DNA of 10,445 nucleotides from a virus, in UHGV virus genome UHGV-0096675. One strand, given 5' to 3'. Positions 1-10,445 of the stretch are shown here, piece after piece (position 1 is the stretch's first letter; each line of letters starts with the position of its first letter). A program made the position numbers and the translations under genes. The notes below the pieces were generated by a model. It was not told the origin of the DNA and ran no database searches. It saw only the letters and a list, made by a program, of their open reading frames with translations.

Positions 1-417
1 GCGTAGACGGTCGATATCCTTCAGGATGCGTTTTTTACGCAGGTGTGCTTCGTCGATAATCAGCAGATCGATATTTTCAGGAAAAACACGACGAATAAGC
101 GTGTCGGCGCTGGCAATCTGAATTTTCCGGTCCGGATCGTTGTTCGGGTGATCCGCCCAGATATAACCGATTTCATCCCCCGGTAACCCGTACTCCACGA
201 ACCGATTAGCCGTCTGACCGATCAGGATGGTGTACGGTGCACAGAACAGGACACGCATACCACGGCTGACAAACCCGGCAACGATGAAGGCGGCCAAACC
301 CGTTTTACCGCTACCGGTTGGCGAGTACACCATGAAGGTGTCGTTTGCCTTCCAGTCACGGCGCAACATGTTTAGCGCTCGTTCCTGTGCAAAATTCGGC
401 GTGATCGTCAGCTCCAT
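1..417 (-). CDS. DEAD/DEAH-box (SF2) helicase, N-terminal part; 3' end of gene lies beyond window start
   Basis: Minus-strand ATG at 417..415 opens a frame that runs to position 1 with no stop (absent from the ORF track because it has no stop in the window). Translation MELTITPNFAQERALNMLRRDWKANDTFMVYSPTGSGKTGLAAF...LLIIDEAHLRKK carries Walker A (SPTGSGKT) and a DEAH-type Walker B (IIDEAH). It sits in the replication-gene position of the rightward early operon. Confidence 0.8.
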   Translation of the reverse strand, partial: MELTITPNFAQERALNMLRRDWKANDTFMVYSPTGSGKTGLAAFIVAGFVSRGMRVLFCAPYTILIGQTANRFVEYGLPGDEIGYIWADHPNNDPDRKIQIASADTLIRRVFPENIDLLIIDEAHLRKKRILKDIDRLR

Positions 418-734
418 TGTGCTGCCCCCGTGCTGATGAGATAATCATTTTGTGATGTGGTTTTCATGGATTCCCCCTCACATGGCTGGTGGCCTCCCCA
501 AAGGCTGCCAGCCCCACTTCTGATTCAGCTCCTCTGAAAAATCACTCTTCCAGGAAGAACCCTTTTCGTTTCTCAGCGCCTGAGCGCTTTGTACTACCTT
601 GCTGATACAGGCGTTTTTTTAAATTGCGCCCTTAAGACAGTGATCTACTTAACCAATGGATCTCTCCTGTTGGAAAAGCCCCTATTCCTGCCCCTACACC
701 CAATCCCCCCTTACCCCCCTTTCCCTCTTCCCCA

Positions 735-759
735 TAAAAACGTACTACTTCCCTAGTAC
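735..759 (-). terminator. Weak putative intrinsic terminator downstream of the cII-position gene
   Basis: On the minus strand, hairpin GTACTA/TAGTAC (plus coordinates 742-747 and 754-759, 6-nt loop) is followed by a 5-T run (complement of A736-740). The stem is AT-rich and therefore weak. Confidence 0.3.
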
Positions 760-845
760 ATATGAGGAGTTGGGTCAGTTGGTTGCCAACCTGAACAGGC
801 GCCTTTAAGCCTGCTTCTGTTCGGGTACCTTTAAACCCGAAACAA

Positions 846-1142
846 TCAGGAGCGCGATTGCGTTCCAGCCAGGGGAGGTTCGGCGGTATACCCCTGTAAA
901 GCCCTGCCCTGATTTCTCACAAACAGGCGAAGCCTTGTGTTTGCTTCATGCCTTGCCCGGTTCTCCTTGCGGTACGAAACGGGTTCGGCCTCGAACGTCT
1001 CCTGATACACAGCTGCATAACGCTGGATAGCTTTTTGTCGTGCAGTTGGTGTCAGGCTAAGTAACTGCTGCTTAATCCACTCGGCATCCGCTTGGCTAAA
1101 ATCGGAAGGTAAGATGCTGAGTAACTCAGGCGCTGGTTTCAT
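846..1142 (-). CDS. Hypothetical protein in the cII position (possible lysis-lysogeny regulator), function unknown
   Basis: ORF track minus ORF 846..1178; the track start at 1178 is a TTG, and the first ATG is at 1142 (MKPAPELLSILPSDF...). It overlaps the 3' end of cro by 17 nt and lies immediately downstream of cro as cII does in lambda. No motif recognised with certainty. Confidence 0.55.
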   Translation of the reverse strand: MKPAPELLSILPSDFSQADAEWIKQQLLSLTPTARQKAIQRYAAVYQETFEAEPVSYRKENRARHEANTRLRLFVRNQGRALQGYTAEPPLAGTQSRS

Positions 1143-1332
1143 CGCTTCGCCGCTTAGATGGGAATGCTTTGTTTTCAAAAGCTGAAACAGTCCCTTCCTC
1201 AGAAATCACAACAAAGATTTCCCGACCGGCTCTTAATGCTTTGCTTATGGCAATTTGCGTTACTCCGAGCGCTGCGCCAGCTCTTACCTGGCCGTGCTCT
1301 TTCACGTATTCCTTAAGAGTAATCTGGTTCAT
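1126..1332 (-). CDS. cro: Cro repressor (lambda Cro family)
   Basis: 68-aa product MNQITLKEYVKEHGQVRAGAALGVTQIAISKALRAGREIFVVISEEGTVSAFENKAFPSKRR... aligns by eye along its whole length with lambda Cro ([66 protein letters not shown]). RBS GAGGA lies 5 nt upstream of the ATG on the minus strand. It is divergent from cI. Confidence 0.9.
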   Translation of the reverse strand: MNQITLKEYVKEHGQVRAGAALGVTQIAISKALRAGREIFVVISEEGTVSAFENKAFPSKRRSDETSA

Positions 1333-1424
1333 ACGTCCTCTACGATTAAATACTACTAAAAGTATTAAAATGAAGGGTACTATAGGTAGGAGACATAATC
1401 AAACTTTTGGTATTAAATCAGCCC
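1333..1424. promoter_or_regulatory. OR-like divergent promoter/operator region with three 11-bp dyad sites (TACT-N3-AGTA) at 24-bp spacing
   Basis: Sites at 1354-1364 TACTAAAAGTA (perfect dyad), 1378-1388 TACTATAGGTA (1 mismatch) and 1402-1412 AACTTTTGGTA (2 mismatches), with starts exactly 24 bp apart. -10-like TATTAA at 1411-1416 sits just upstream of the cI ATG, suggesting a leaderless or short-leader PRM-like start. Confidence 0.6.
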
Positions 1425-2126
1425 ATGGAAAAGAAAAGCAGATTGACCACAGAGCAGCTTCAAGACGCAACGCGTCTAAAAGCTTTGTATGACTCGAAGA
1501 AAAAGGAGTTAGGGATCACGCAGGCTGATATGGCTGACGAACTGGACATATCTCAAGGTGCGGTCGGTCACTACCTGAATGGGCGAAACCCACTGAATCT
1601 TCCAGTTGCAGCAAAGTTTGCGAAACTGCTTCATGAGCCGATTTCGAGTTTCAGCCCCGCTCTTGCTAAAGAAGCTGAGCTGTTATCTCAGGTATCAAAC
1701 GTTACTTATCATGGCCCGGCCAAGCCGCGAGGGACATACCCGCTTATTAGCTGGGTAAGTGCTGGAGCATGGTGTGAGGCTATAGAACCGTACACACTCA
1801 AAGACATTGATGAATGGTACGATTCCGATGCACACATTGAAGGTCAAGGGTTCTGGTTAAAAGTCCAGGGAGACTCAATGACTTCTCCTGTTGGTATGAG
1901 CATACCTGAAGGCATGTACGTTTTAGTCGACACCGGAAAAGAGCCAATCAATGGGAGTTTAGTTGTTGCCAAGCTTACCGACGCTAACGAAGCGACATTT
2001 AAAAAGCTTGTAATCGACGCTGGAAAAACTTACCTCAAGCCATTGAATCCTCAGTATCCTCTCATCCCAATCAACGGCAATTGCAGGATCATCGGTGTCG
2101 TTGTTCAAGCTATGATGTGGCTCTGA
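1425..2126 (+). CDS. cI: CI repressor (lambda CI family; N-terminal HTH plus C-terminal S24 LexA-like autopeptidase domain)
   Basis: ORF track 1407..2126 begins at a TTG; the ATG at 1425 gives MEKKSRLTTEQLQDATRLKALYDSKKKELGITQ..., matching the lambda CI N-terminus ([34 protein letters not shown]). Ala-Gly cleavage site (VSAGAW), catalytic Ser (QGDSMTSP) and Lys (TFKKL) are present, and the C-terminus ...PLNPQYPLIPIN... matches lambda ...PLNPQYPMIPCN.... Confidence 0.92.
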   Translation: MEKKSRLTTEQLQDATRLKALYDSKKKELGITQADMADELDISQGAVGHYLNGRNPLNLPVAAKFAKLLHEPISSFSPALAKEAELLSQVSNVTYHGPAKPRGTYPLISWVSAGAWCEAIEPYTLKDIDEWYDSDAHIEGQGFWLKVQGDSMTSPVGMSIPEGMYVLVDTGKEPINGSLVVAKLTDANEATFKKLVIDAGKTYLKPLNPQYPLIPINGNCRIIGVVVQAMMWL

Positions 2127-2144
2127 TTTAGCTACTAACAGTAC

Positions 2145-2176
2145 AAAGCCTGTCCTCTCGACAGGCTTTTTTTTAT
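2145..2176 (+). terminator. Rho-independent terminator downstream of cI
   Basis: Perfect 8-bp stem AGCCTGTC (2147-2154) / GACAGGCT (2160-2167) with a 5-nt loop, extendable by two A-T pairs, followed by a run of 8 T. Confidence 0.8.
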
Positions 2177-2218
2177 TTCTTTACATTTCAACAAGTAAGC
2201 ATTCAACCAACACAAAAC

Positions 2219-2260
2219 TATACTTTTAGTATTGCAGATACTAAAACATCTAGTATTATT
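2219..2260 (+). promoter_or_regulatory. PL-like early promoter with CI-type operator dyads
   Basis: Perfect dyad TACTTTTAGTA at 2221-2231 is the reverse complement of the OR site at 1354-1364. A second partial site AACATCTAGTA lies at 2245-2255, 24 bp downstream. -35 TTGCAG (2232-2237), 16-nt spacer, -10 TATTAT (2254-2259), so the operators flank and overlap the promoter. Confidence 0.55.
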
Positions 2261-2291
2261 CATTTCATCGGCAAATAACGGAGCTAGTGAG

Positions 2292-2612
2292 ATGACGACT
2301 AACCCTACAATCAAAAAATTATATCAGCTTGTTGATATACCAGATTTTCGCTACAGCAAAGATTGTTCAAGTATTGATTATGGAGATATTGCATCAGATT
2401 GCGATACTAAAACAGTGTCTATCTTTGAAGCTATAAACCATATTAGCTTAAACATTTTTTCCATTGCAGAAGATAAAGAAATCAGCAAAGAAAAGATATT
2501 AAACCTTTCCTGTATCATCGCTGACCTTACTGAAATTGGAATGGCGACCAATAAAATTGGTCAAGCAGCATCATACCTTTCCGGATTAAAGGATGGCAAT
2601 CATGGCTCATGA
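2292..2612 (+). CDS. Hypothetical small mildly acidic protein (106 aa), AT-rich early gene
   Basis: ATG at 2292 (the track start at 2232 is a TTG inside the promoter) with GGAG about 10 nt upstream. Product MTTNPTIKKLYQLVDIPDFRYSKDCSSIDYGD... has no recognised domain. Base composition is visibly much more AT-rich than the flanking prophage genes. Confidence 0.55.
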   Translation: MTTNPTIKKLYQLVDIPDFRYSKDCSSIDYGDIASDCDTKTVSIFEAINHISLNIFSIAEDKEISKEKILNLSCIIADLTEIGMATNKIGQAASYLSGLKDGNHGS

Positions 2613-2796
2613 ATTCTCGTTAGAACAAGCAAAAGAAAAAGCTCATCAGGCAGAAATAATCTGCCTAATGATGGAGGCATACCCAAATAAAATGGATGAT
2701 TCAGAAATCGAGGCAATAGCATCTTTATTAAGCAAGTTAACCGGGGATGTTTGTGCCTGGTTAATTGAAGAGCAAGCCATTAGATCCAACGCTTAG
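2602..2796 (+). CDS. Hypothetical small acidic protein (64 aa), AT-rich early gene
   Basis: ATG at 2602 with AAGGA 8 nt upstream (the track start at 2593 abuts the RBS). It overlaps the upstream gene's stop (2610-2612). Product MAHEFSLEQAKEKAHQAEIICLMMEAYPNKMDDSEIEAIASLL... is Glu/Asp-rich. Confidence 0.5.
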   Translation: MAHEFSLEQAKEKAHQAEIICLMMEAYPNKMDDSEIEAIASLLSKLTGDVCAWLIEEQAIRSNA

Positions 2797-2867
2797 TTTT
2801 TTTAGATTCCTAAATAAATAACAGCTTTATTGCTGAGGGGATTCCATACACTTTTTTAGGAAAAACC

Positions 2868-2966
2868 ATGATAAACATCAACGCCTTTAAGACTGCAAAG
2901 TTATTTTGTTCAGCCGGTTACTGGGATATCGCGAATTTATATCTTAGGAAAGCATACGGGAGATAA
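2868..2966 (+). CDS. Possible small ORF (32 aa), uncertain
   Basis: ATG at 2868 with AGGA 6 nt upstream; MININAFKTAKLFCSAGYWDIANLYLRKAYGR; stop TAA at 2964-2966, 3 nt before the next gene. Below the ORF-track length cutoff; supported only by RBS and context. Confidence 0.2.
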   Translation: MININAFKTAKLFCSAGYWDIANLYLRKAYGR

Positions 2967-2969
2967 ATC

Positions 2970-3194
2970 ATGTCAACACAAGATCGCCAAGACGTGCAAG
3001 GTGTGAATATTAAAGCTGAACAACTTAACTTCCTCATGCAAACAATTCACGCTCACCATAAGGATTTTGACTGCCATCAACTTGACGGCCTTTTAGGTCT
3101 GGCTTATGACCTTGCCGGGTCGGTATATAGCTGGACCGAGGAAGAGGAAAGGATCGTATTAGCAAATGAAGATGCACAACGAAAGGTGTATTAA
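2970..3194 (+). CDS. Hypothetical protein (74 aa)
   Basis: ATG at 2970 with GGGAG upstream. First gene of a tightly packed, translationally coupled chain. No recognised domain. Confidence 0.6.
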   Translation: MSTQDRQDVQGVNIKAEQLNFLMQTIHAHHKDFDCHQLDGLLGLAYDLAGSVYSWTEEEERIVLANEDAQRKVY

Positions 3195-3560
3195 ATGGAT
3201 AATTTAATCACTACGTATCGCCGACGAATTTTAAAGGCTGCGTTATTACGCCACCAGCGTAAAACCGGAAGCACCTGCATCATTATTAATATGCCTAAAG
3301 AGGGGATAAACACTGTCGAATTAACAGAAATACTGCTTGATGGTCTGTTGAGACGATTCGAAAAGTTGGCTCTCAGTGAATACGGGAATATTGACGGCGT
3401 AAAAGCCATCAGAGGAATTTACAGCAACGCCGTAGATGTGAATGGCAGCGGTGAGTTCCTGACAGAAAGCGGAAAGGCATTAATCGACGATCTCATTGCT
3501 GAGCTGGTCGAGTTCGCCAAGAAACAAAAATCAGTCACAGCGGAGACAAGCCATGAGTGA
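3195..3560 (+). CDS. Hypothetical protein (121 aa)
   Basis: ATG at 3195 immediately follows the upstream stop TAA (3192-3194); AAAGG RBS upstream. No recognised domain. Confidence 0.6.
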   Translation: MDNLITTYRRRILKAALLRHQRKTGSTCIIINMPKEGINTVELTEILLDGLLRRFEKLALSEYGNIDGVKAIRGIYSNAVDVNGSGEFLTESGKALIDDLIAELVEFAKKQKSVTAETSHE

Positions 3561-3765
3561 TCAGACACCAATTATCACGCACGAACCAGTAAATATCGTG
3601 CTGACAATCGAGAACGGGAAGGTTATCCACACGCGGCCGGTACATAACGGCGAGGTTACTGCATCGCTGGAGACGTTTTTATGGATGGCTGAACAAGCCG
3701 GTTACACGATCACCCCACCTGCAGGAGAGAAGGACAATGGCCCTGACAGCGATACGAATTCCTGA
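3553..3765 (+). CDS. Hypothetical protein (70 aa)
   Basis: ATG at 3553 (the track start at 3496 is a TTG) overlaps the upstream stop (ATGAGTGA) with GGAG 7 nt upstream. MSDQTPIITHEPVNIVLTIENGKVIHTRPVHNGEV.... Confidence 0.5.
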   Translation: MSDQTPIITHEPVNIVLTIENGKVIHTRPVHNGEVTASLETFLWMAEQAGYTITPPAGEKDNGPDSDTNS

Positions 3766-3955
3766 GTGGGTGCACCTGCAGGCGGTCCATGTCCTCCGCC
3801 AGTTCAGAGCCAAGCGTATTCATCCCTGCCGTATGCACGGCTCCGGAAACCTGAGCCTGAGGGTTAATCGCCGCTGGCGGCTGCTGTCCCGAGACGGTGG
3901 CCAGAACTGGGAAGTAATGAGCCATGAACGATACAGCAAACTGAAGGACAGATAA
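3737..3955 (+). CDS. Hypothetical basic Arg/Trp-rich protein (72 aa); weak resemblance to RelE/HigB-type toxin C-terminal region (speculative)
   Basis: ATG at 3737 preceded by GGAGAGAAGGA; codon third positions are GC-rich as in neighbouring genes. ...IHPCRMHGSGNLSLRVNRRWRLLSRDGGQNWEVMSHERY resembles, by eye only, the conserved C-terminal region of HigB-like toxins. Confidence 0.45.
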   Translation: MALTAIRIPEWVHLQAVHVLRQFRAKRIHPCRMHGSGNLSLRVNRRWRLLSRDGGQNWEVMSHERYSKLKDR

Positions 3956-4050
3956 TGAAAGCATTCTTCCTTTCTCTGCTGTTTGGCCTGTTGCTGGTGT
4001 CCGTCGTGTTCGGCGCGCTGATTGAGTACAAATTTTTGATGAATTTCTGA
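3955..4050 (+). CDS. Small hydrophobic single-pass membrane peptide (31 aa)
   Basis: ATG at 3955 overlaps the upstream stop (TAATG) with AAGGA 7 nt upstream. MKAFFLSLLFGLLLVSVVFGALIEYKFLMNF is about 21 consecutive hydrophobic residues followed by a short charged tail. Its stop overlaps the next start (TGATG). Below the ORF-track length cutoff. Confidence 0.4.
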   Translation: MKAFFLSLLFGLLLVSVVFGALIEYKFLMNF

Positions 4051-4484
4051 TGGTGTTCAAGATGGCAAAAGATTTTTTCGACGTGGCGAGAGTACCCGCG
4101 GATCGCGTTGCAGCGAGGGTAATCAGTAAGGGCATTGATTGGCAGCCAAACAAAAAACGCGAGCAGGGGGATAGCGAAACACCACTCCCTACTCTTGATA
4201 TAAATCAAATGGACCGAACGCAGCGGGAACAGTTTGATTTATTCCAAGGGAGAACTTTCGGGCGAATGACCGTAATTGGGATCGCCGCTATCAAACAAGG
4301 CGACAGTATGCGTTACGTGGTTCGTTGCGCCTGCGGTACATACACATATCGGAGAGCAAAGGCGATTAAAAATCCGAAGAACAACATGGATTGCTGTGAT
4401 TACTGTAGACATCTGCTGCATTTGAAAAGGAATGAAATCCATCGCCGAACAGGTAAAAACCTCAAGTGGGAGGATTTGCCGTGA
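4050..4484 (+). CDS. Hypothetical protein with putative Cys-cluster zinc ribbon (144 aa)
   Basis: ATG at 4050, coupled to the upstream peptide gene. C-terminal cysteine cluster ...RCACGTYTYRRAKAIKNPKNNMDCCDYCRH... (CxC...CCxxC). An alternative start is ATG 4062. Confidence 0.5.
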   Translation: MVFKMAKDFFDVARVPADRVAARVISKGIDWQPNKKREQGDSETPLPTLDINQMDRTQREQFDLFQGRTFGRMTVIGIAAIKQGDSMRYVVRCACGTYTYRRAKAIKNPKNNMDCCDYCRHLLHLKRNEIHRRTGKNLKWEDLP

Positions 4485-4789
4485 CTAAACACCAAGACAT
4501 TATTAATCGCTGGACCCGTTTAGCGGTGGAGGCCAAAGAGCTGGGGCTCGCCACCATTCCCATCGACCCGGAAAAAATGTTGATGGTACTGGGGGAGCTG
4601 CCGTCCAGTTCGGCGGAAAAGTCCGCCGATTGCCAGAATGACTATCAGGCTGCGATCGACATCTTGCGCGACAGAGCTGCTCGCGAACTAGATGGTGGTT
4701 TTCGCGCTCATCACAACGCCCTGATTTATGCCGCTAATGAACTGGAAAATGCCCAGGCTTTCGGGCAGGAGGTCAGCCATGAGTCTTGA
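4481..4789 (+). CDS. Hypothetical protein (102 aa)
   Basis: GTG at 4481 with strong RBS GGGAGGA 7 nt upstream, overlapping the upstream stop (GTGA). The ORF-track start at 4466 is another in-frame GTG without an RBS. Confidence 0.5.
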   Translation: MTKHQDIINRWTRLAVEAKELGLATIPIDPEKMLMVLGELPSSSAEKSADCQNDYQAAIDILRDRAARELDGGFRAHHNALIYAANELENAQAFGQEVSHES

Positions 4790-4988
4790 CTGTGTACCCC
4801 TTTCTACGTACTGCAGGGACGCGGGGGAAACGGTAGAAGCCGTTAACAAACGGATACAAAGGGGGTTATGGAAGGAGGGAGTACATGTATTAAAAGTCGA
4901 TGGCGTTAAAGAACGCTGGATTGACTTAACGGAGGTTTCGAAGTGGGCAAGAAAGAACAAGGATCATTATCTCTCCCAAGAGGAATAA
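4779..4988 (+). CDS. xis: Excisionase (Xis-like, recombination directionality factor)
   Basis: ATG at 4779 with GGAGG 8 nt upstream. The 69-aa product MSLDCVPLSTYCRDAGETVEAVNKRIQRGLWKEGVHVLKVDGVKERWIDLTEVSKWARKNK... is a small basic protein directly upstream of int and overlapping it by 46 nt, as xis does in lambdoid phages. Confidence 0.65.
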   Translation: MSLDCVPLSTYCRDAGETVEAVNKRIQRGLWKEGVHVLKVDGVKERWIDLTEVSKWARKNKDHYLSQEE

Positions 4989-6115
4989 CCATCCGCCAGC
5001 ATAAAACTGGCGACACTCTGGTTATCACTTTCACATACAAAGGGGTTCTGTGCCGGGAGCCCCTCTCCAAAATGGAAGCAAACGCGCGCGGTGTGAAGTA
5101 CGCCGAGCGCCTGCTCGGGGAGATACAAAACCAGATCGTCAGTGGCACCTTTGAATATGCGAAATATTTCCCCAACTCCAAAAAACTGGAGCTTTTCGGG
5201 GGGGTGAAGAAAACCAAAAACATAAAGTCTTACCTGGACGAGTACCTGAAAATCTGCCAGAACCGCAACCTGTCCCCGTCGACTATCAACGGTTATGAAA
5301 AATGCCTGTCGGCGCTGTCAGCCCTGCATAAACTCCACGTGTCAGAACTGACGCCAGCGGTCCTTAAAAACTGGATAGCCAGCCGGAAAACAAAGCTGAA
5401 AACGACCAGGAATAACCTTTCGTTTCTGCGCAGCGCCATCGATGAAGCTGTTACGGATGGCCTGCTGACCATTAACCCGGTAACCCTCGTCAGCGCCAGC
5501 CGGTACCACGTGATCGACAGCAGCCCGAGCGCCGACGATTACGAGGTTGACCCGTTCACGCCAGCGGAAACCCTCGCCATTTACCAGAGCTGCAGGTACC
5601 CGGAATGGGAAAACCTGTTCCGCTTTGCTTTCAATACCGGTCTGCGGAGCTCCGAACTGTGCGCGCTGCGCTGGCCTGATCTCGACACCATCGCGAACAC
5701 AGCCCACGTTCAGGCGGCCAGTGTCGTAGGGGTACTTAAAGGCACCAAGACAAAAGCCGGTACCCGTAAGGTGGAGCTGAACAGTGAGGCGCTGGCGGCC
5801 CTGCAGGCGCAGAAGCAATACACCTTTATGAAAAGTGAGTTCATATTCAGCGACCCGAAAACGGGAGAACCCTGGGCGAACGCCGACGCTATCCGTAAAA
5901 AAGCATGGGTGCCGACCCTGAAAAAAGCTGGCGTGCGCTATCGTAACCCGTACCAGACGCGGCACACATTCGCCACCAAGCATATTAGCCAGGGCGTTAA
6001 CCTCTTCTGGCTTGCCGGACAGATGGGCCACAAAGGACCGGAAATGATATTCCGCAACTACGGTAAATACCTGGCTGAATATGACGGTAAAACCGCGATT
6101 TCAGCCGCGCTGTAG
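4943..6115 (+). CDS. int: Tyrosine integrase (lambda Int family) of the lambdoid prophage
   Basis: GTG start at 4943 with GGAGG 7 nt upstream; 390 aa. Carries the conserved tyrosine-recombinase catalytic region (...GLRSSELCALRW..., ...RHTFATKHISQG..., ...FRNYGKYLAEY...). Its 3' end points at the ssrA-type att core, the lambda-like arrangement. Confidence 0.92.
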   Translation: MGKKEQGSLSLPRGITIRQHKTGDTLVITFTYKGVLCREPLSKMEANARGVKYAERLLGEIQNQIVSGTFEYAKYFPNSKKLELFGGVKKTKNIKSYLDEYLKICQNRNLSPSTINGYEKCLSALSALHKLHVSELTPAVLKNWIASRKTKLKTTRNNLSFLRSAIDEAVTDGLLTINPVTLVSASRYHVIDSSPSADDYEVDPFTPAETLAIYQSCRYPEWENLFRFAFNTGLRSSELCALRWPDLDTIANTAHVQAASVVGVLKGTKTKAGTRKVELNSEALAALQAQKQYTFMKSEFIFSDPKTGEPWANADAIRKKAWVPTLKKAGVRYRNPYQTRHTFATKHISQGVNLFWLAGQMGHKGPEMIFRNYGKYLAEYDGKTAISAAL

Positions 6116-6237
6116 CGGGGGAAATATTTCAAAATGTTGGACAGAATCAGGACGTTAGACAGACCTCAATATGCACGTAAAATGCACTTGAGGTATATAA
6201 CAGCAAGAGAATTGTTTATTTTCAATGAGTTAAATAC

Positions 6238-6274
6238 ATTTCGGACGCGAGTTCAACTCCCGCCAGCTCCACCA
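6238..6274 (+). other. ssrA (tmRNA) 3'-end fragment: acceptor/T-arm copy ending in CCA, serving as an att core and element junction
   Basis: ATTTCGGACGCGAGTTCAACTCCCGCCAGCTCCACCA matches the 3' terminus of enterobacterial tmRNA as I recall it (...AUUUCGGACGCGGGUUCAACUCCCGCCAGCUCCACCA) except for one G-to-A change. No upstream tmRNA body is present: the int stop is only 122 bp upstream. Confidence 0.8.
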
Positions 6275-6308
6275 AATATTGATGTACTGAAGTTCAGTAA
6301 AGTCTACT

Positions 6309-6342
6309 AAGCCCGCACAGCACAAGCTCTGCGGGCTTTTTT
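6309..6342 (+). terminator. Rho-independent terminator downstream of the ssrA fragment
   Basis: 9-bp stem AAGCCCGCA (6309-6317) / TGCGGGCTT (6330-6338) with a 12-nt loop, followed by a T-run through 6342. Confidence 0.7.
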
Positions 6343-6440: not shown

Positions 6441-7670
6441 ATGGCCAAAATCGCTAAGAAGCTCACTGACACTGAAATCAAAAGCACCAAACCTGCCGAA
6501 AAAGAGGTTAACCTTTTTGACGGCGATGGTTTGCTGTTGCGAATCGCTCCCCTGGCGAAGGGAGGGAAGAAAAATTGGTATTTCAGATATGCAGTGCCTG
6601 TGACCAAAAAGCGAACTAAGGTGAGCTTAGGAACCTATCCTCACCTTACACTTGCGAAGGCACGAGCTTTACGTGATGAATACTTGTCGTTGCTTACAAA
6701 TGGTATAGACCCCCAAGTTCATAACAACCAAAAAGCCAATGCACTGAAAGATGCCACGGAACATACATTTCAAGCAGTAGCCAAGAAGTGGCTTGATGAG
6801 AAAGTCAAAACGTCAGGCATCTCCCAAGATCATGCTAACGACATCTGGCGAAGCCTAGAGAGAAATATCTTTTCCACATTGGGTGATACCCCAATTAAGG
6901 AGATTCGCCCTAAAATGCTTAAACAGCATTTAGAACCCATAGAAAAACGAGGTGTCCTTGAAACACTTCGCCGCATCATATCCCGCCTGAATGAAATTTT
7001 CCGCTATGCAGCAACAGAAGAACTCATAGAATTCAACCCGGCAGACAACCTGGGGCAACGGTTCAGCAAGCCAAAAAAACAGAATATGCCAGCATTACCC
7101 CCTTCCGAACTCCCTCGCTTCTTGGTTGCTCTAAACAATGCTTCTATCCGTTTGGAAACAAGGCTACTGATTGAGTGGCAACTTCTCACATGGGTTCGCC
7201 CAGGTGAAGCTGTTCGCACAAGATGGTCAGATATTGATATTGAAACTGGCATGTGGAACATCCCGGCGGAGTTTATGAAAATGAAGAAGCCTCACAAAGT
7301 TCCACTGAGCAAAGAAGCTTTGCGAGTTTTGGATTTAATGAAAGTCATCAGCGGGCATAGAGAGTGGGTGTTCCCCAGTATCAAAGCTCCACTCAATCAC
7401 ATGCATGAACAAACAGCTAATGCGGCCATAATCCGTATGGGTTTCGGAGGTGAGCTTGTAGCTCACGGTATGCGATCCATTGCTAGAACGGCTGCTGAGG
7501 AGTCTGGCAAGTTTAGGACTGATGTCTTAGAAGCCGCCCTTGCCCACTCGAAGAAAGATGAAATAATTGCAGCCTACAATCGTGCAGAGTATCTCACTGA
7601 ACGGGTGGTTCTCATGCAATGGTGGAGTGACTATGTTTCGTCTCAAAAATGCAAAGTTATTGCCGCATAA
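6441..7670 (+). CDS. intA: Tyrosine integrase, P4-like IntA family (CP4-57 IntA-like)
   Basis: ATG at 6441 with GAGGG 8 nt upstream. The product MAKIAKKLTDTEIKSTKPAEKEVNLFDGDGLLLRIA...DIWRSLERNIF...ALETLRRI...MWQLLT...HGMRSIARTA...LEAALAH...AYNRAEYL...MQWWSDYV aligns by eye, from memory, with E. coli CP4-57 IntA. The track start at GTG 6360 adds 27 residues not supported by that alignment. Confidence 0.9.
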   Translation: MAKIAKKLTDTEIKSTKPAEKEVNLFDGDGLLLRIAPLAKGGKKNWYFRYAVPVTKKRTKVSLGTYPHLTLAKARALRDEYLSLLTNGIDPQVHNNQKANALKDATEHTFQAVAKKWLDEKVKTSGISQDHANDIWRSLERNIFSTLGDTPIKEIRPKMLKQHLEPIEKRGVLETLRRIISRLNEIFRYAATEELIEFNPADNLGQRFSKPKKQNMPALPPSELPRFLVALNNASIRLETRLLIEWQLLTWVRPGEAVRTRWSDIDIETGMWNIPAEFMKMKKPHKVPLSKEALRVLDLMKVISGHREWVFPSIKAPLNHMHEQTANAAIIRMGFGGELVAHGMRSIARTAAEESGKFRTDVLEAALAHSKKDEIIAAYNRAEYLTERVVLMQWWSDYVSSQKCKVIAA

Positions 7671-7733
7671 CTCTCCCATGATGGATTAACTATCTTGATT
7701 TAGTTAAAGAATTAATAATCACACCATTAACCT

Positions 7734-7781
7734 ATGTGGACTAAGCATAGCCATTTACAAATGGGGACATTGAGTCCACAT
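7734..7781. repeat. 48-bp dyad-symmetric element (nested inverted repeats around a central AC) upstream of the recombinase operon
   Basis: Outer arms ATGTGGACT (7734-7742) / AGTCCACAT (7773-7781) and inner arms CCATTT (7751-7756) / AAATGG (7759-7764) share one symmetry centre at 7757/7758. The intervening 8-nt segments are not symmetric. No downstream T-run, so it is not a typical terminator. Confidence 0.5.
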
Positions 7782-7952
7782 AACGAAAGCTGTCGGTCAT
7801 ATCAGCTAAATAATTCACATCTCTTCTCGATTATCATACACCTCGAAGATCTACCAAATTCGCTCTAATCAATGATAAAACAGTTGAATTCGGTTAAAAT
7901 TTGATCAATTTTATCCACTACATTGTATTGAATCATCCATGAGGTTTCGTGC

Positions 7953-9509
7953 ATGGCTAGCGAAAATGAAAAAAATCATAGAGTTAGGGTCGCGCAGTAC
8001 TTGAGGATGTCTACCGACCATCAGCAATATTCTTTACATAATCAGTCCGAATATATCAAAGATTATGCTGAAAAGAACAATATGGAAATCGCTTATACCT
8101 ACGATGATGCAGGTAAGAGCGGAGTCAGTATCGTAGGCAGGCATTCTTTGCAGCAGTTACTTAGCGATGTAGAACAAAAGAAAATAGATATACAGGCTGT
8201 ATTATTTTATGATGTGAGCCGTTTTGGTCGTTTTCAAAATAGTGATGAAGCGGCATATTATTCCTTTCTATTTGAGAGAAATGGTGTAGATCTTATATAT
8301 TGTTCCGAACCTATACCCACTAAAGATTTCCCTTTAGAGTCCTCTGTTATACTGAATATAAAAAGATCTAGTGCTGCATATCACAGCAGGAATCTATCTG
8401 AAAAGGTATTTATAGGGCAAGTAAATTTAATAAAGCTTGGTTATCATCAAGGCGGTATGGCTGGTTATGGGCTGAGACGTCTTTTAGTAGACGAAAATGG
8501 CATAGCTAAAGAAATATTGAGTTTCCGCAAAAGAAAGAGTATTCAAACAGATAGGGTAATATTAATTCCGGGACCAAAAAATGAAATAAAAATTGTAAAT
8601 AGAATATATGATCTCTTTATAGATAATAACGTCCCAGAATTCATTATTGCTGAGAGATTAAATGAACAGAACATACCTGCAGAAAATGGAACATTATGGA
8701 CTCGTGCAAAAATACATCAAATTTTGACAAATGAAAAATATATTGGAAACAACATATATAACAAAACCTCATCTAAATTAAAAAGTAGGCTTGTAAAAAA
8801 CCCCAAACATGAATGGGTTAGATGTGACAAGGCATATAAACCTATTATTTCAAAGAAAAAATACAATAAAGCTCAAGAAATAATTCAGCTCCGATCCATT
8901 CATTTGACTAATGAAGATCTATTAGAAAAACTAAAACAAAAATTAGAATCTAATGGAAAACTATCAGGCTTTATCATTGATGAAGATGATACAGGCCCTT
9001 CATCTTCTGTTTATAGAACCCGATTTGGTGGTCTTTTAAGAGCATATACTTTGATTGGTTATAAGCCAGAACATGATTACAGCTATCTCAAAATAAATGA
9101 AGCACTAAGATCATTTTACTCAGAGATAATTGAGGATTTTAAGGGTGAAATTTTAAAAAGTAACTGTCATATAGACGAGTATAAATATGCCCCAATGCTT
9201 TACATCAATGATGAGTTTTTAATTTCCGTCCTTGTTACTAAATGCATACATATGAAATCAGGTAAACTTAGATGGAAAGTCCGGTTTGATAACTCACAGA
9301 AAGCAGACATAACAATTGTTATACGAATGAATTCACAAAATATTTCACCTCTTGATTTTTATATCATACCAAAGATTGAAAACGAATATAATAAAATGTG
9401 CATGACGGAAACAAACAACATTCGATTAGATCTCTATAGATTTGATAATCTTGATAAACTTCTACAAATTATTACTCGCATGAAAGTGAGGGAACTATAT
9501 GCTGCCTGA
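7953..9509 (+). CDS. Large serine recombinase-like protein (resolvase/invertase N-terminal catalytic domain plus recombinase domain; no canonical zinc ribbon seen)
   Basis: ATG at 7953 with GAGG 8 nt upstream; 518 aa. N-terminus RVAQYLRMSTDHQQYSLHNQ fits the serine-recombinase catalytic motif (Y-x-R-x-S-T-x-x-Q), and ...IQAVLFYDVSRFGRF... fits the conserved D-x-S-R-x-x-R motif. GGMAGYGL resembles the start of the recombinase domain. No CxxC pairs are present. Confidence 0.85.
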   Translation: MASENEKNHRVRVAQYLRMSTDHQQYSLHNQSEYIKDYAEKNNMEIAYTYDDAGKSGVSIVGRHSLQQLLSDVEQKKIDIQAVLFYDVSRFGRFQNSDEAAYYSFLFERNGVDLIYCSEPIPTKDFPLESSVILNIKRSSAAYHSRNLSEKVFIGQVNLIKLGYHQGGMAGYGLRRLLVDENGIAKEILSFRKRKSIQTDRVILIPGPKNEIKIVNRIYDLFIDNNVPEFIIAERLNEQNIPAENGTLWTRAKIHQILTNEKYIGNNIYNKTSSKLKSRLVKNPKHEWVRCDKAYKPIISKKKYNKAQEIIQLRSIHLTNEDLLEKLKQKLESNGKLSGFIIDEDDTGPSSSVYRTRFGGLLRAYTLIGYKPEHDYSYLKINEALRSFYSEIIEDFKGEILKSNCHIDEYKYAPMLYINDEFLISVLVTKCIHMKSGKLRWKVRFDNSQKADITIVIRMNSQNISPLDFYIIPKIENEYNKMCMTETNNIRLDLYRFDNLDKLLQIITRMKVRELYAA

Positions 9510-10395
9510 AAAAAATGAATTCCCAATAATTCAAATTGAGATTGCAAAAATAAAATTTCTTAACCCACGAACAAGAAATAAGGTAGTGCATGAAGAAATA
9601 AAGGAAAGCATAAAAAAAAGAGGATTAAGCAAGCCTATAAGCGTAAGAGCTATTGATGAAGGCGATTTCAAATATGCTTTAATTTGTGGTCAAGGGAGAA
9701 TAGAGGCTCTCGTTGCATTAGGTGAAACTATTATTCCAGCAATTATAAGAGATGTATCAGAAGAAGATGCTTACGTTATGAGTTTAGTTGAAAACATTGC
9801 AAGGAGAAGACCACGTTCTAATGAGTTATTACAGGTGATTAAAGACATGAAAATCAGAGGACTTTCAGACTCCGAAATAAGTGAGATTACTGGATATTCA
9901 TCGAACTGGGTGAGCAGTATTAATATGCTACTTGATAAGGGAGAGCATAAACTTCTCTCAGCAGTCGAACGGGGTAATTTGCCTCTGTATCTCGCAGTGC
10001 AATTTGCAAGATGTGAAACTGAGGAAGCACAAGATATTCTTACCGAAGCATATGATAAAAAATTAATAAAAAGTCGGGACATTATAAAGATAAAACACAT
10101 TCTAAATCAAAGAACAGTTGGGAATAAAGGTGCAAAAGCAGCCGGATTTTATTATCACAAACCATCAAAAAGGATGACTTCAGAGGAGTTGATTGAGCTT
10201 TATGAAAATAGTATCGCTGAACATAAATCTGTTTATAACAACTCAAAATTCATAAAAACCAACCTACTAATAGTAAATGAGATTTTTAACATCATAATGA
10301 TGAATAAAAGCTTTCAACATATACTTGAACAAGAGAATCTTTCAGAACTACCATCTCAGATATTAACCCCAGTAAACAAAGAGGTATTAAAATGA
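9499..10395 (+). CDS. ParB/Srx-like N-terminal domain protein with HTH (divergent ParB box: GQGRIEAL instead of GERRxRA)
   Basis: ATG at 9499 overlaps the recombinase stop (ATGCTGCCTGA) with GAGGG 7 nt upstream; 298 aa. ...PISVRAIDEGDFKYALICGQGRIEALVALGETIIPAIIRDVSEEDAYVMSLVENIARR... matches ParB N-terminal domain architecture, followed by an HTH-like segment (LSDSEISEITGYSSNWVSSINMLL). The C-terminal 100 or so residues are uncharacterised. Confidence 0.8.
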   Translation: MLPEKNEFPIIQIEIAKIKFLNPRTRNKVVHEEIKESIKKRGLSKPISVRAIDEGDFKYALICGQGRIEALVALGETIIPAIIRDVSEEDAYVMSLVENIARRRPRSNELLQVIKDMKIRGLSDSEISEITGYSSNWVSSINMLLDKGEHKLLSAVERGNLPLYLAVQFARCETEEAQDILTEAYDKKLIKSRDIIKIKHILNQRTVGNKGAKAAGFYYHKPSKRMTSEELIELYENSIAEHKSVYNNSKFIKTNLLIVNEIFNIIMMNKSFQHILEQENLSELPSQILTPVNKEVLK

Positions 10396-10445
10396 TTCAG
10401 ATACGTTTTGGCGATAATTTTATTTACCTGGAAACTAATAAGTTA
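10392..10445 (+). CDS. Hypothetical protein, 5' part only (third gene of the operon; continues beyond window end)
   Basis: ATG at 10392 overlaps the upstream stop (ATGA); MIQIRFGDNFIYLETNKL... remains open to the window end, with the same AT-rich composition as the upstream genes. Confidence 0.4.
   Translation, partial: MIQIRFGDNFIYLETNKL

Follow-up and report, generated by a model that had tools for sequence, protein, structure and literature searches.

The 10,445-nucleotide stretch of UHGV virus genome UHGV-0096675 analysed here (the window, meaning this stretch at its full length) ends in three overlapping genes that follow intA, the gene of a P4-type tyrosine integrase. The first gene encodes a protein of the large-serine-recombinase lineage (REC), whereas the second and third encode proteins related to ParB, Noc and KorB (ParB1 and ParB2), the last of which is cut by the window end. 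REC and ParB1 overlap by 11 nucleotides (nt), and ParB2 starts in an ATGA overlap with ParB1 (Table 1). The three genes are translationally coupled. RefSeq annotates the same three genes in Escherichia coli ST540, T7 Express and BL21(DE3), as a 'recombinase family protein' followed by two 'ParB/RepB/Spo0J family partition proteins'. The open reading frames (ORFs) and overlaps thus agree with a preliminary description of this DNA, made from the sequence alone, as does the lower G+C content of the trio (0.29-0.38) compared with that of intA (0.43-0.47). Each of the three proteins belongs to a known superfamily, and their obligate combination is, as far as we have found, new.

Table 1. Positions of the trio and of associated features, in window coordinates unless a locus is named
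Feature	Coordinates	Strand	Basis
REC, large-serine-recombinase-like, 518 amino acids (aa)	7953..9509	+	ORF, Pfam Resolvase + Recombinase
ParB1, ParB/Noc/KorB-fold, 298 aa	9499..10395	+	ORF, Pfam ParB_N + RepB
ParB2, first 18 codons (gene cut by window end)	10392..10445	+	full gene from E. coli ST540
Imperfect palindrome AAAATTTGATCAATTTT, GATC-centred; candidate operator/clamp-loading site	7896..7912	.	motif conservation
Imperfect 50-bp dyad, 24-nt arms, centre AC; doubtful role	7733..7782	.	inverted repeat I5
IntA, P4-type tyrosine integrase (neighbour of the trio, not a member)	6441..7670	+	Pfam, NCBIfam
ssrA 3'-end copy (attachment core, left of island; context)	6250..6274	+	24/25 match to GGTTCAACTCCCGCCAGCTCCACCA
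Divergent small helix-turn-helix-like gene	L002 7041-7424; L094 6083-6490; L088 6721-7401	-	motif
3' RNA	L088 10927-11170; L038 10902-11150; L059 10893-11135; 97 metagenomic copies L095-L203		
Imperfect 34-nt direct repeat, pAtC58	L094 ~6043-6076 and ~9924-9957		sequence comparison
Integrase 3' remnants	L007 10947-11231; L008 4337-4624; L025 6937-7347 (-); L031 ~10998; L035 11114-11566		

A serine recombinase family with no recognisable zinc ribbon

The complete serine-recombinase catalytic N-terminus ascribed to the first gene in the preliminary description is borne out by both profile matches and residue conservation. REC matches Pfam Resolvase (PF00239) over residues 14-152 (7.7e-22) and Pfam Recombinase (PF07508) over residues 210-312 (6e-22), the latter region aligning to residues 189-305 of SPbeta SprA, and neither the serine motif (Y16-R18-M19-S20-T21) nor D87-S89-R90-G92-R93 varies in alignments of 25 and of 41 homologues, which share 41-61% identity with REC. 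Similarity to the CcrB, CcrC and IS607 enzymes in NCBIfam is weak. Judged by its sequence, REC is catalytically intact and belongs to the lineage of large serine recombinases, which includes the integrases of phages, integrative and conjugative elements (ICEs) and transposons.

Large serine recombinases normally carry a zinc-ribbon domain, which allows them to read attachment (att) sites unaided. As the preliminary description had remarked, gene 1 has none that can be recognised: no zinc-ribbon Pfam family matches REC at E<=0.01, and no cysteine quartet is conserved among the 25 and 41 aligned homologues, in which C431 alone is conserved. The C-terminal ~200 aa are well conserved inside the family, without zinc ligands, and have no match in the PDB by sequence, the PDB profile hits spanning only residues ~3-312. 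The apparent loss of the zinc ribbon in this family is new as far as our searches showed. An AlphaFold2 (AF2) model of REC, built from database homologues, has moderate overall confidence (predicted local distance difference test, pLDDT, 64.7), with values of 84-96 in the recombinase domain; residues 320-402, considered in relation to the coiled coil by which serine integrases control synapsis and directionality, are predicted to be helical, but the pLDDT there is 34-75. The best Foldseek matches of the model are the SPbeta SprA, Bxb1 and PhiC31 integrases, the alignments to full-length integrases being long and of high root-mean-square deviation.

The REC family is large, comprising 6603 clusters (90% identity) at E<=1e-30 among the 8000 candidates tested. 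Fusions of REC with a ParB protein, or of ParB1 with ParB2, were not found, and database entries longer than REC, considered as possible fusions, proved to be start-site artefacts or, in P0242, to carry a duplicated catalytic domain. P0242 (659 aa) is a REC variant whose N-terminus bears a second resolvase domain, degenerate and without the serine motif.

Two paralogous ParB-like proteins

ParB1 matches Pfam ParB_N (PF02195, 1.4e-13) and RepB (7.5e-8) and scores 60.6 bits against TIGR00180, for which the cut-off is 58.45. It consists of an N-terminal NTP-binding-type domain, a helix-turn-helix (HTH) and a long helical C-terminus, and the top Foldseek matches of its AF2 model (pLDDT 90.6) are Noc, ParB bound to CTP or CDP, and KorB, over ~200 columns. 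The second gene had been described as a ParB fold with an HTH, in which the GERRxRA box had degenerated to GQGRIEA; this box is real and conserved, box II reading C-G-Q/E-G-R-x-E-A/S throughout the family, to which the window sequence conforms. The equivalent of box III, E-N-x-A-R, is conserved as well. At E<=1e-30 the family has 131 representatives (50% identity), all of ~295 aa and free of fusions.

The third gene, previously left as unknown, encodes instead a second ParB/RepB paralogue and no new fold. Full-length ParB2, read in E. coli ST540 (L001 22793-23689), has 298 aa and matches Pfam RepB strongly (6e-24), ParB_N weakly and Noc by profile (1e-9). Its motif D-G-H-L-R-x-E is invariant and, with the following A, stands as the box II equivalent (D-G-H-L-R-x-E-A). 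Neither protein has the canonical box II, G-E-R-R-x-R-A, of which the G, a single R and, in most cases, the A are all that remain, and the E-N-x-x-R form of box III is retained in ParB1 only. Aligned with hhalign, the two match over their whole length (97% probability, 247 columns). By these comparisons, ParB1 and ParB2 are paralogous DNA-binding proteins of the ParB/Noc/KorB fold, with ParB2 the more divergent. Many ParB2 alleles of E. coli and Salmonella are truncated (P0030, 178 aa, 386 sequences; P0007, 245 aa, 794 members), which suggests decay of the cassette in some lineages.

Conservation and distribution of the trio

When a ParB2 profile was run against one genome for each species, it yielded 80 loci from Enterobacterales, Rhodobacterales, Hyphomicrobiales, Burkholderiales and other orders. 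The genes follow the order REC-ParB1-ParB2 on one strand, abutting or overlapping, at all loci with enough upstream sequence except L030, and database gene calls likewise give overlaps of 1 to 4 nt in distant members. Among distant IMG/VR hits with enough sequence, 24 of 25 have the full trio, so that the three genes form the conserved unit that the preliminary description had taken them for. The trio ranges over Alpha-, Beta- and Gammaproteobacteria.

Trio DNA is present in 662 of 5426 complete E. coli genomes (12%), in all of them on the chromosome, and the E. coli-type trio was never found at high identity in the plasmid collection. ParB2 homologues do occur on 90 plasmid records (E<=1e-20), 58 of them conjugative, including pAtC58 of Agrobacterium fabrum C58, which has the full trio, and Sinorhizobium megaplasmids; in the phage collection, a homologue was found in one record only. 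E. coli B derivatives, among them BL21(DE3) with its copy at NC_012971.2 2624036-2627371, keep the trio intact in an island shrunk to ssrA-intA-trio-IS1. Spread has been very recent across eight genera of Enterobacteriaceae, with identities of 97-100% at the protein level (ParB2) and 92-99% at the nucleotide level.

The earlier statement that no named system fits these genes also holds. A scan of REC and ParB1 against PADLOC-DB v2.0.0 gave nothing for REC at E<=0.1 and, for ParB1, only a chance-level match to MTase_II (E=0.01), and nowhere in the searchable literature did we find the trio described. None of the observations by which the preliminary description would have been refuted was made, in that the third gene proved to be conserved and no named system gave a confident match.

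Limits and junctions of the cassette

The cassette measures ~3.6-4 kb, and its limits are sharp, falling within tens of bases of the coding ends. Copies that are 95-97% identical in Scandinavium, Erwinia and one metagenome-assembled genome share only the segment from -203 to +22 around the trio; copies of the E. coli type begin to diverge 51 nt past ParB2, and throughout the Rhodobacterales group the right limit falls at the same place, just past a terminal hairpin. On pAtC58, the cassette consists of a regulator gene and the trio (~3.86 kb) and lies between the two copies of an imperfect direct repeat of 34 nt, which agree at 20/26 positions in their best 26-nt window (z 3.7). In other plasmids, the AbiE genes of the left flank and the Fic gene of the right flank are found apart from each other; the breakpoints fall ~17 nt and 40-50 nt beyond the cassette. 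In a search for terminal repeats at 40 loci, only pAtC58 and cases with integrase remnants stood out. The core of the pAtC58 repeat resembles a tRNA T-arm (GGTTCRAYTCC, opposite strand), and no tRNA gene is present there.

Several independent lineages have, just past the trio and away from the intact integrase, a degenerate fragment from the 3' part of a P4-type integrase gene. The fragments begin at differing codons, 28 and 62 residues before the histidine of the HxxR motif. Insertion at a fixed integrase codon was therefore rejected, and the integrase gene has no single insertion site; we read the remnants as the outcome of tandem-island decay or of non-uniform recombination, and they are no proof of a fixed insertion site. 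As for E. coli, no evidence of inversion or excision was found, and the only odd junction, inside the dyad of strain EC2641, is an IS903B insertion.

Genomic neighbourhood

Across 51 distinct downstream and 45 distinct upstream contexts, no conserved fourth protein family accompanies the trio overall. Recurrent neighbours are tyrosine integrases, small HTH regulators, ParE, MobA relaxases and helicases, together with components of restriction-modification (R-M) systems, mad2/mad3 of MADS, and GajB-like and AbiEii-like proteins. At many loci, a tRNA or transfer-messenger RNA (tmRNA) gene is followed by an integrase gene and then by the trio, which occurs in both orientations; others lie at the borders of ICEs and integrative and mobilizable elements (IMEs), at the edge of an element that bears a type IV secretion system, or on megaplasmids. 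A ParA-type ATPase is not among the 25 commonest families of the 149 downstream and 132 upstream neighbour proteins, and no ParA gene is present in the annotated E. coli, pAtC58 and other loci.

Individual loci vary on this plan. In E. coli ST540, complete hsdM, hsdS and hsdR genes of a type I R-M system (L001 25101-31064) lie beyond the trio and an IS3 remnant; in T7 Express and BL21(DE3), the hsd region is missing and a copy of IS1 is in its place. In a Morganella locus (L027 6950-7024, 7573), the trio begins ~550 nt past tRNA-Arg(CCT) with no integrase between them, and in its close relative L031 the order is tRNA-Arg, integrase, trio. GC-rich loci (~37, including pAtC58) have a small divergent gene of ~110-135 aa situated 100-430 nt upstream of REC, whose product bears the motif W-x-G-A-N-E-K/R-T-V-K-N-W-F and is in some cases fused to a DeoR-type HTH. 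This gene is likely a clade-specific regulator of the cassette.

Candidate cis elements

An imperfect palindrome lies ~45 nt before the start of REC. A AAAWTGATCAWTTT-like motif occupies the same position in eight gammaproteobacterial subgroups whose upstream regions are otherwise unalignable, and this GATC-centred palindrome is the only motif that these regions have in common. Within 43 kb, the sole further copy is a match with two mismatches inside ParB2, at chance rate, and there is no parS array. From its conservation and position, we regard the palindrome as a candidate operator or loading site. The GC-rich lineages (mostly alphaproteobacterial) have another conserved promoter region, with repeated TTTCGGAAA-like motifs. 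A structured 5' untranslated region in the window was rejected (z-score -0.65).

The dyad between intA and REC, to which the preliminary description had drawn attention (7734-7781), is a real inverted repeat, its arms being 75% complementary around a 2-nt centre, but it is neither conserved nor repeated. Its right arm varies without compensation in relatives that are 98% identical (L004, L005, L006, L009 and L010), no second copy of a half-site occurs in 43 kb, and other lineages have no equivalent; as a recombination site, it was rejected on these grounds. A 14-nt repeat of its right arm past ParB2 (D5) is at chance level and lies inside an IS3 remnant.

A structured RNA in the GC-rich clade

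At 37 loci, mostly alphaproteobacterial, an RNA of ~150-245 nt follows directly past the ParB2 stop codon, in a region outside the window. Its nucleotide identity (84-91%) is above that of the coding regions. RNAalifold predicts several hairpins, with a GC-rich one at the end, and compensatory changes in 23 of 50 pairs. In an alignment of 97 independent metagenomic copies, which was fitted to the model and is thereby biased towards structure, pairing holds for 97.6% of cells and double changes occur in 21 of 34 pairs. No shuffled or slid control came near these values, and many G-U pairs fit the operon strand only. In a reciprocal test, 95 of 113 metagenomic occurrences of the 5' motif of the RNA lie 6-90 nt past the end of a ParB2 homologue, and ParB2 remnants persist at several of the others. 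Rfam 15 (4227 covariance models) gave no match at E<=1 on L088 10800-11400, and the motif sequence was not found in the searchable literature. The covariance model of the RNA has no match in the window, in E. coli, in other gamma- and betaproteobacterial loci or in pAtC58, which excludes this RNA from the E. coli cassette. The motif is a separate find, new as far as our searches showed, absent from Rfam and well supported by covariation.

The island and the adjoining prophage

IntA is identified by Pfam (Arm-DNA-bind_3, Phage_int_M and Phage_integrase) and by NCBIfam PRK09692 (3e-133), and its RefSeq start coincides with the one in the window. The att core reported beside it was recovered as a copy of the ssrA 3' end, and no such match is expected by chance. 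Also upheld is the view that REC is unlikely to be the integrase of the island, since the adjacent tyrosine integrase at tRNA and tmRNA sites accounts for integration. Around the att junction (window 6073-6342), Rfam gives a partial, weak tmRNA match (20.8 bits) and an IsrM-like match of 46 bits, far under the gathering score; the same stretch follows intact ssrA in L001. Window 1-6115 resembles a prophage inserted in tandem at ssrA, with an ORF for a CI/LexA-like repressor (1407-2126; HTH and a GDSM serine-peptidase motif, as read from the sequence) and a second tyrosine integrase (4943-6115; Pfam Arm-DNA-bind_2 and Phage_integrase). 'Viral' hits of the E. coli type arise because IMG/VR prophage calls extend from such prophages into the island.

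Possible functions of the cassette

We tentatively favour a reading in which the trio is a self-contained recombination or mobility cassette whose ParB pair regulates, targets or licenses REC, because the characterised REC lineage moves DNA, to our knowledge without exception, and because the cassette is discrete in many contexts. Its components point to conservative site-specific recombination under the control of DNA clamps that act as nucleotide switches. ParB1 and ParB2 would form a hetero-oligomeric clamp, gated by a nucleotide (probably CTP), for which the loading site would be the GATC-centred palindrome of the operon promoter and which would repress the operon, as KorB does. The clamp would further deliver, target or license REC, which itself has no zinc ribbon, and REC would recombine conservatively, either moving the cassette or rearranging or resolving the element that carries it. 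By analogy, the ParB-like pair may be the counterpart of target selectors driven by an NTP switch, such as MuB and TnsC, or of directionality factors. In the GC-rich clade, the divergent small HTH-like regulator and the structured 3' RNA would be added to this scheme.

Several points weigh against a mobility cassette. No terminal inverted or direct repeats are common to the cassette ends (40 loci), and neither an empty site nor a circular junction, an inversion or an alternative junction was seen. In E. coli the trio is always in one place, linked to intA, and the varying starts of the integrase remnants fit tandem-island decay as well as insertion, so the cassette could simply be cargo of its carriers. 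Loss of intrinsic DNA reading in REC is not established, because confidence in the C-terminal model is low; CTP binding, heterodimer formation and binding of the palindrome by the ParB pair are putative steps. A bolder proposal, possible but doubtful in our view, is a new class of recombination machine in which a pair of ParB-type clamps replaces the zinc ribbon and sets where and when REC cuts, with the RNA joining in the GC-rich clade, and which would serve either a mobile cassette or immunity against plasmids and phages.

Immunity on its own, as an anti-phage or anti-plasmid system, is the main rival and strikes us as rather unlikely. Here, the ParB-like clamps would recognise or load on invader DNA (for instance, DNA ends or the partition sites of plasmids or phage-plasmids), and REC would be the effector, breaking or scrambling the invader DNA, or host DNA in an abortive response. 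The distribution is patchy (12% of E. coli genomes), the trio is always on mobile elements, adjoining an integrase where defence cargo collects, and the tiny islands of integrase and trio, as in BL21, resemble single-payload islands. Moreover, the D-G-H-L-R motif of ParB2 is reminiscent of the DGQHR/DGQQR class known from DndB and DUF262 proteins, which would suit a defence role. In a minority of the 51 downstream contexts (not tallied per context), defence genes are among the three nearest downstream genes, including type I and III R-M, mad2/mad3 of MADS, GajB-like and AbiEii/AAA_21 genes. The defence reading, also raised in the preliminary description, is not supported so far: neighbourhood and patchiness are the sole evidence, and such a neighbourhood would be expected just as much for any other gene, cargo or core, of these islands. 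PADLOC has no model for REC or ParB1 beyond the one chance-level match, truncated ParB2 alleles are common in E. coli (P0030), and we know of no large serine recombinase that acts as an immune effector.

We consider it improbable that the trio is a maintenance module, in which REC would resolve multimers or cointegrates of the excised island or plasmid and the ParB pair would bind centromeres or silence, with a ParA from the host or a helper, or with none. The 90 plasmid records (58 conjugative), the ICE and IME borders, the RepB and ParB domains and the precedent of RK2 parCBA speak for such a role, which is nevertheless made less likely by the lack of a linked ParA-type ATPase in any context, by a single palindromic site in place of a parS array and by the integrase-type, not resolvase-type, lineage of REC, given that resolution systems use small resolvases and res sites. 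In addition, carrier plasmids would be expected to own repABC-type partition, and the cassette persists in decayed, immobile islands such as that of BL21. Least probable is the inversion switch also raised in the preliminary description, which would flip a promoter or gene segment of neighbouring cargo, for instance R-M genes, in phase variation. Serine recombinases do include invertases, R-M genes lie directly downstream in several loci and a dyad lies upstream of REC, but no inverted site pair flanks any segment, neither the neighbours nor the dyad are conserved, and no inverted variants appear among the E. coli hits that were sampled from these 662 genomes.

Large serine recombinases are major tools of genome engineering, and on the prevailing view the enzyme itself contains all that targeting requires. 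A large natural family without a zinc ribbon that is strictly coupled to two ParB/KorB-type clamps would represent a different way of directing serine recombinases, and the roles of the ParB-CTPase fold would extend beyond segregation and transcription control. Given its presence in 12% of complete E. coli genomes and its spread at 97-100% protein identity, the function of the trio bears on how small islands persist or move. The intact copies in BL21(DE3) and on pAtC58 of A. fabrum C58 make the trio accessible to simple genetics.

Comparison with known systems

The best sequence and fold matches of REC are large serine recombinases (PhiC31, Bxb1, SPbeta SprA, TP901-1, TnpX and CcrB), with which it shares a catalytic domain with the serine nucleophile, a long alpha-E helix and the 'recombinase' domain. 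Unlike the serine integrases, REC has neither a zinc-ribbon match nor a Cys4 set, its C-terminal ~200 aa are family-specific, its gene always precedes two ParB-like genes and no att sites were identified. The CTP-dependent DNA clamps ParB, Noc and KorB, a group that includes the ICEclc activator BisD (PMC12409273), have in common with ParB1 the fold of the N-domain and HTH and the GxxR and ENxxR motifs. A palindrome in the promoter of the operon itself recalls, by analogy, autoregulation of the KorB type. ParB1 differs from these clamps in its box II (G-Q/E-G-R in place of the canonical G-E-R-R) and in its long helical C-terminus of the RepB type, and the trio differs in having two paralogues where the clamps are homodimers, in the coupling to a recombinase and in having no ParA partner or parS array. 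The RepB model of repABC systems (Pfam PF07506) matches both ParB-like proteins; unlike repABC, the trio has no adjacent repA or repC, is chromosomal in E. coli and lies outside plasmid replication regions.

Two operons offer analogies to the arrangement as a whole. The parCBA operon of RK2/RP4 is a multimer-resolution operon that stabilises its plasmid through a resolvase and two accessory proteins, and the trio may be likened to it as a three-gene operon on a mobile element with a serine recombinase and two accessory proteins. RK2 ParA is, however, a small resolvase, homologous in the catalytic domain only, and RK2 ParB is a nuclease outside the ParB/Spo0J fold. In Anabaena, xisF-xisH-xisI comprises a large serine recombinase gene and two downstream accessory genes that control excision, an operon logic that the trio appears to share. 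XisH and XisI are unrelated to ParB, and whereas the Anabaena genes excise one developmental element, the trio is widespread on mobile elements.

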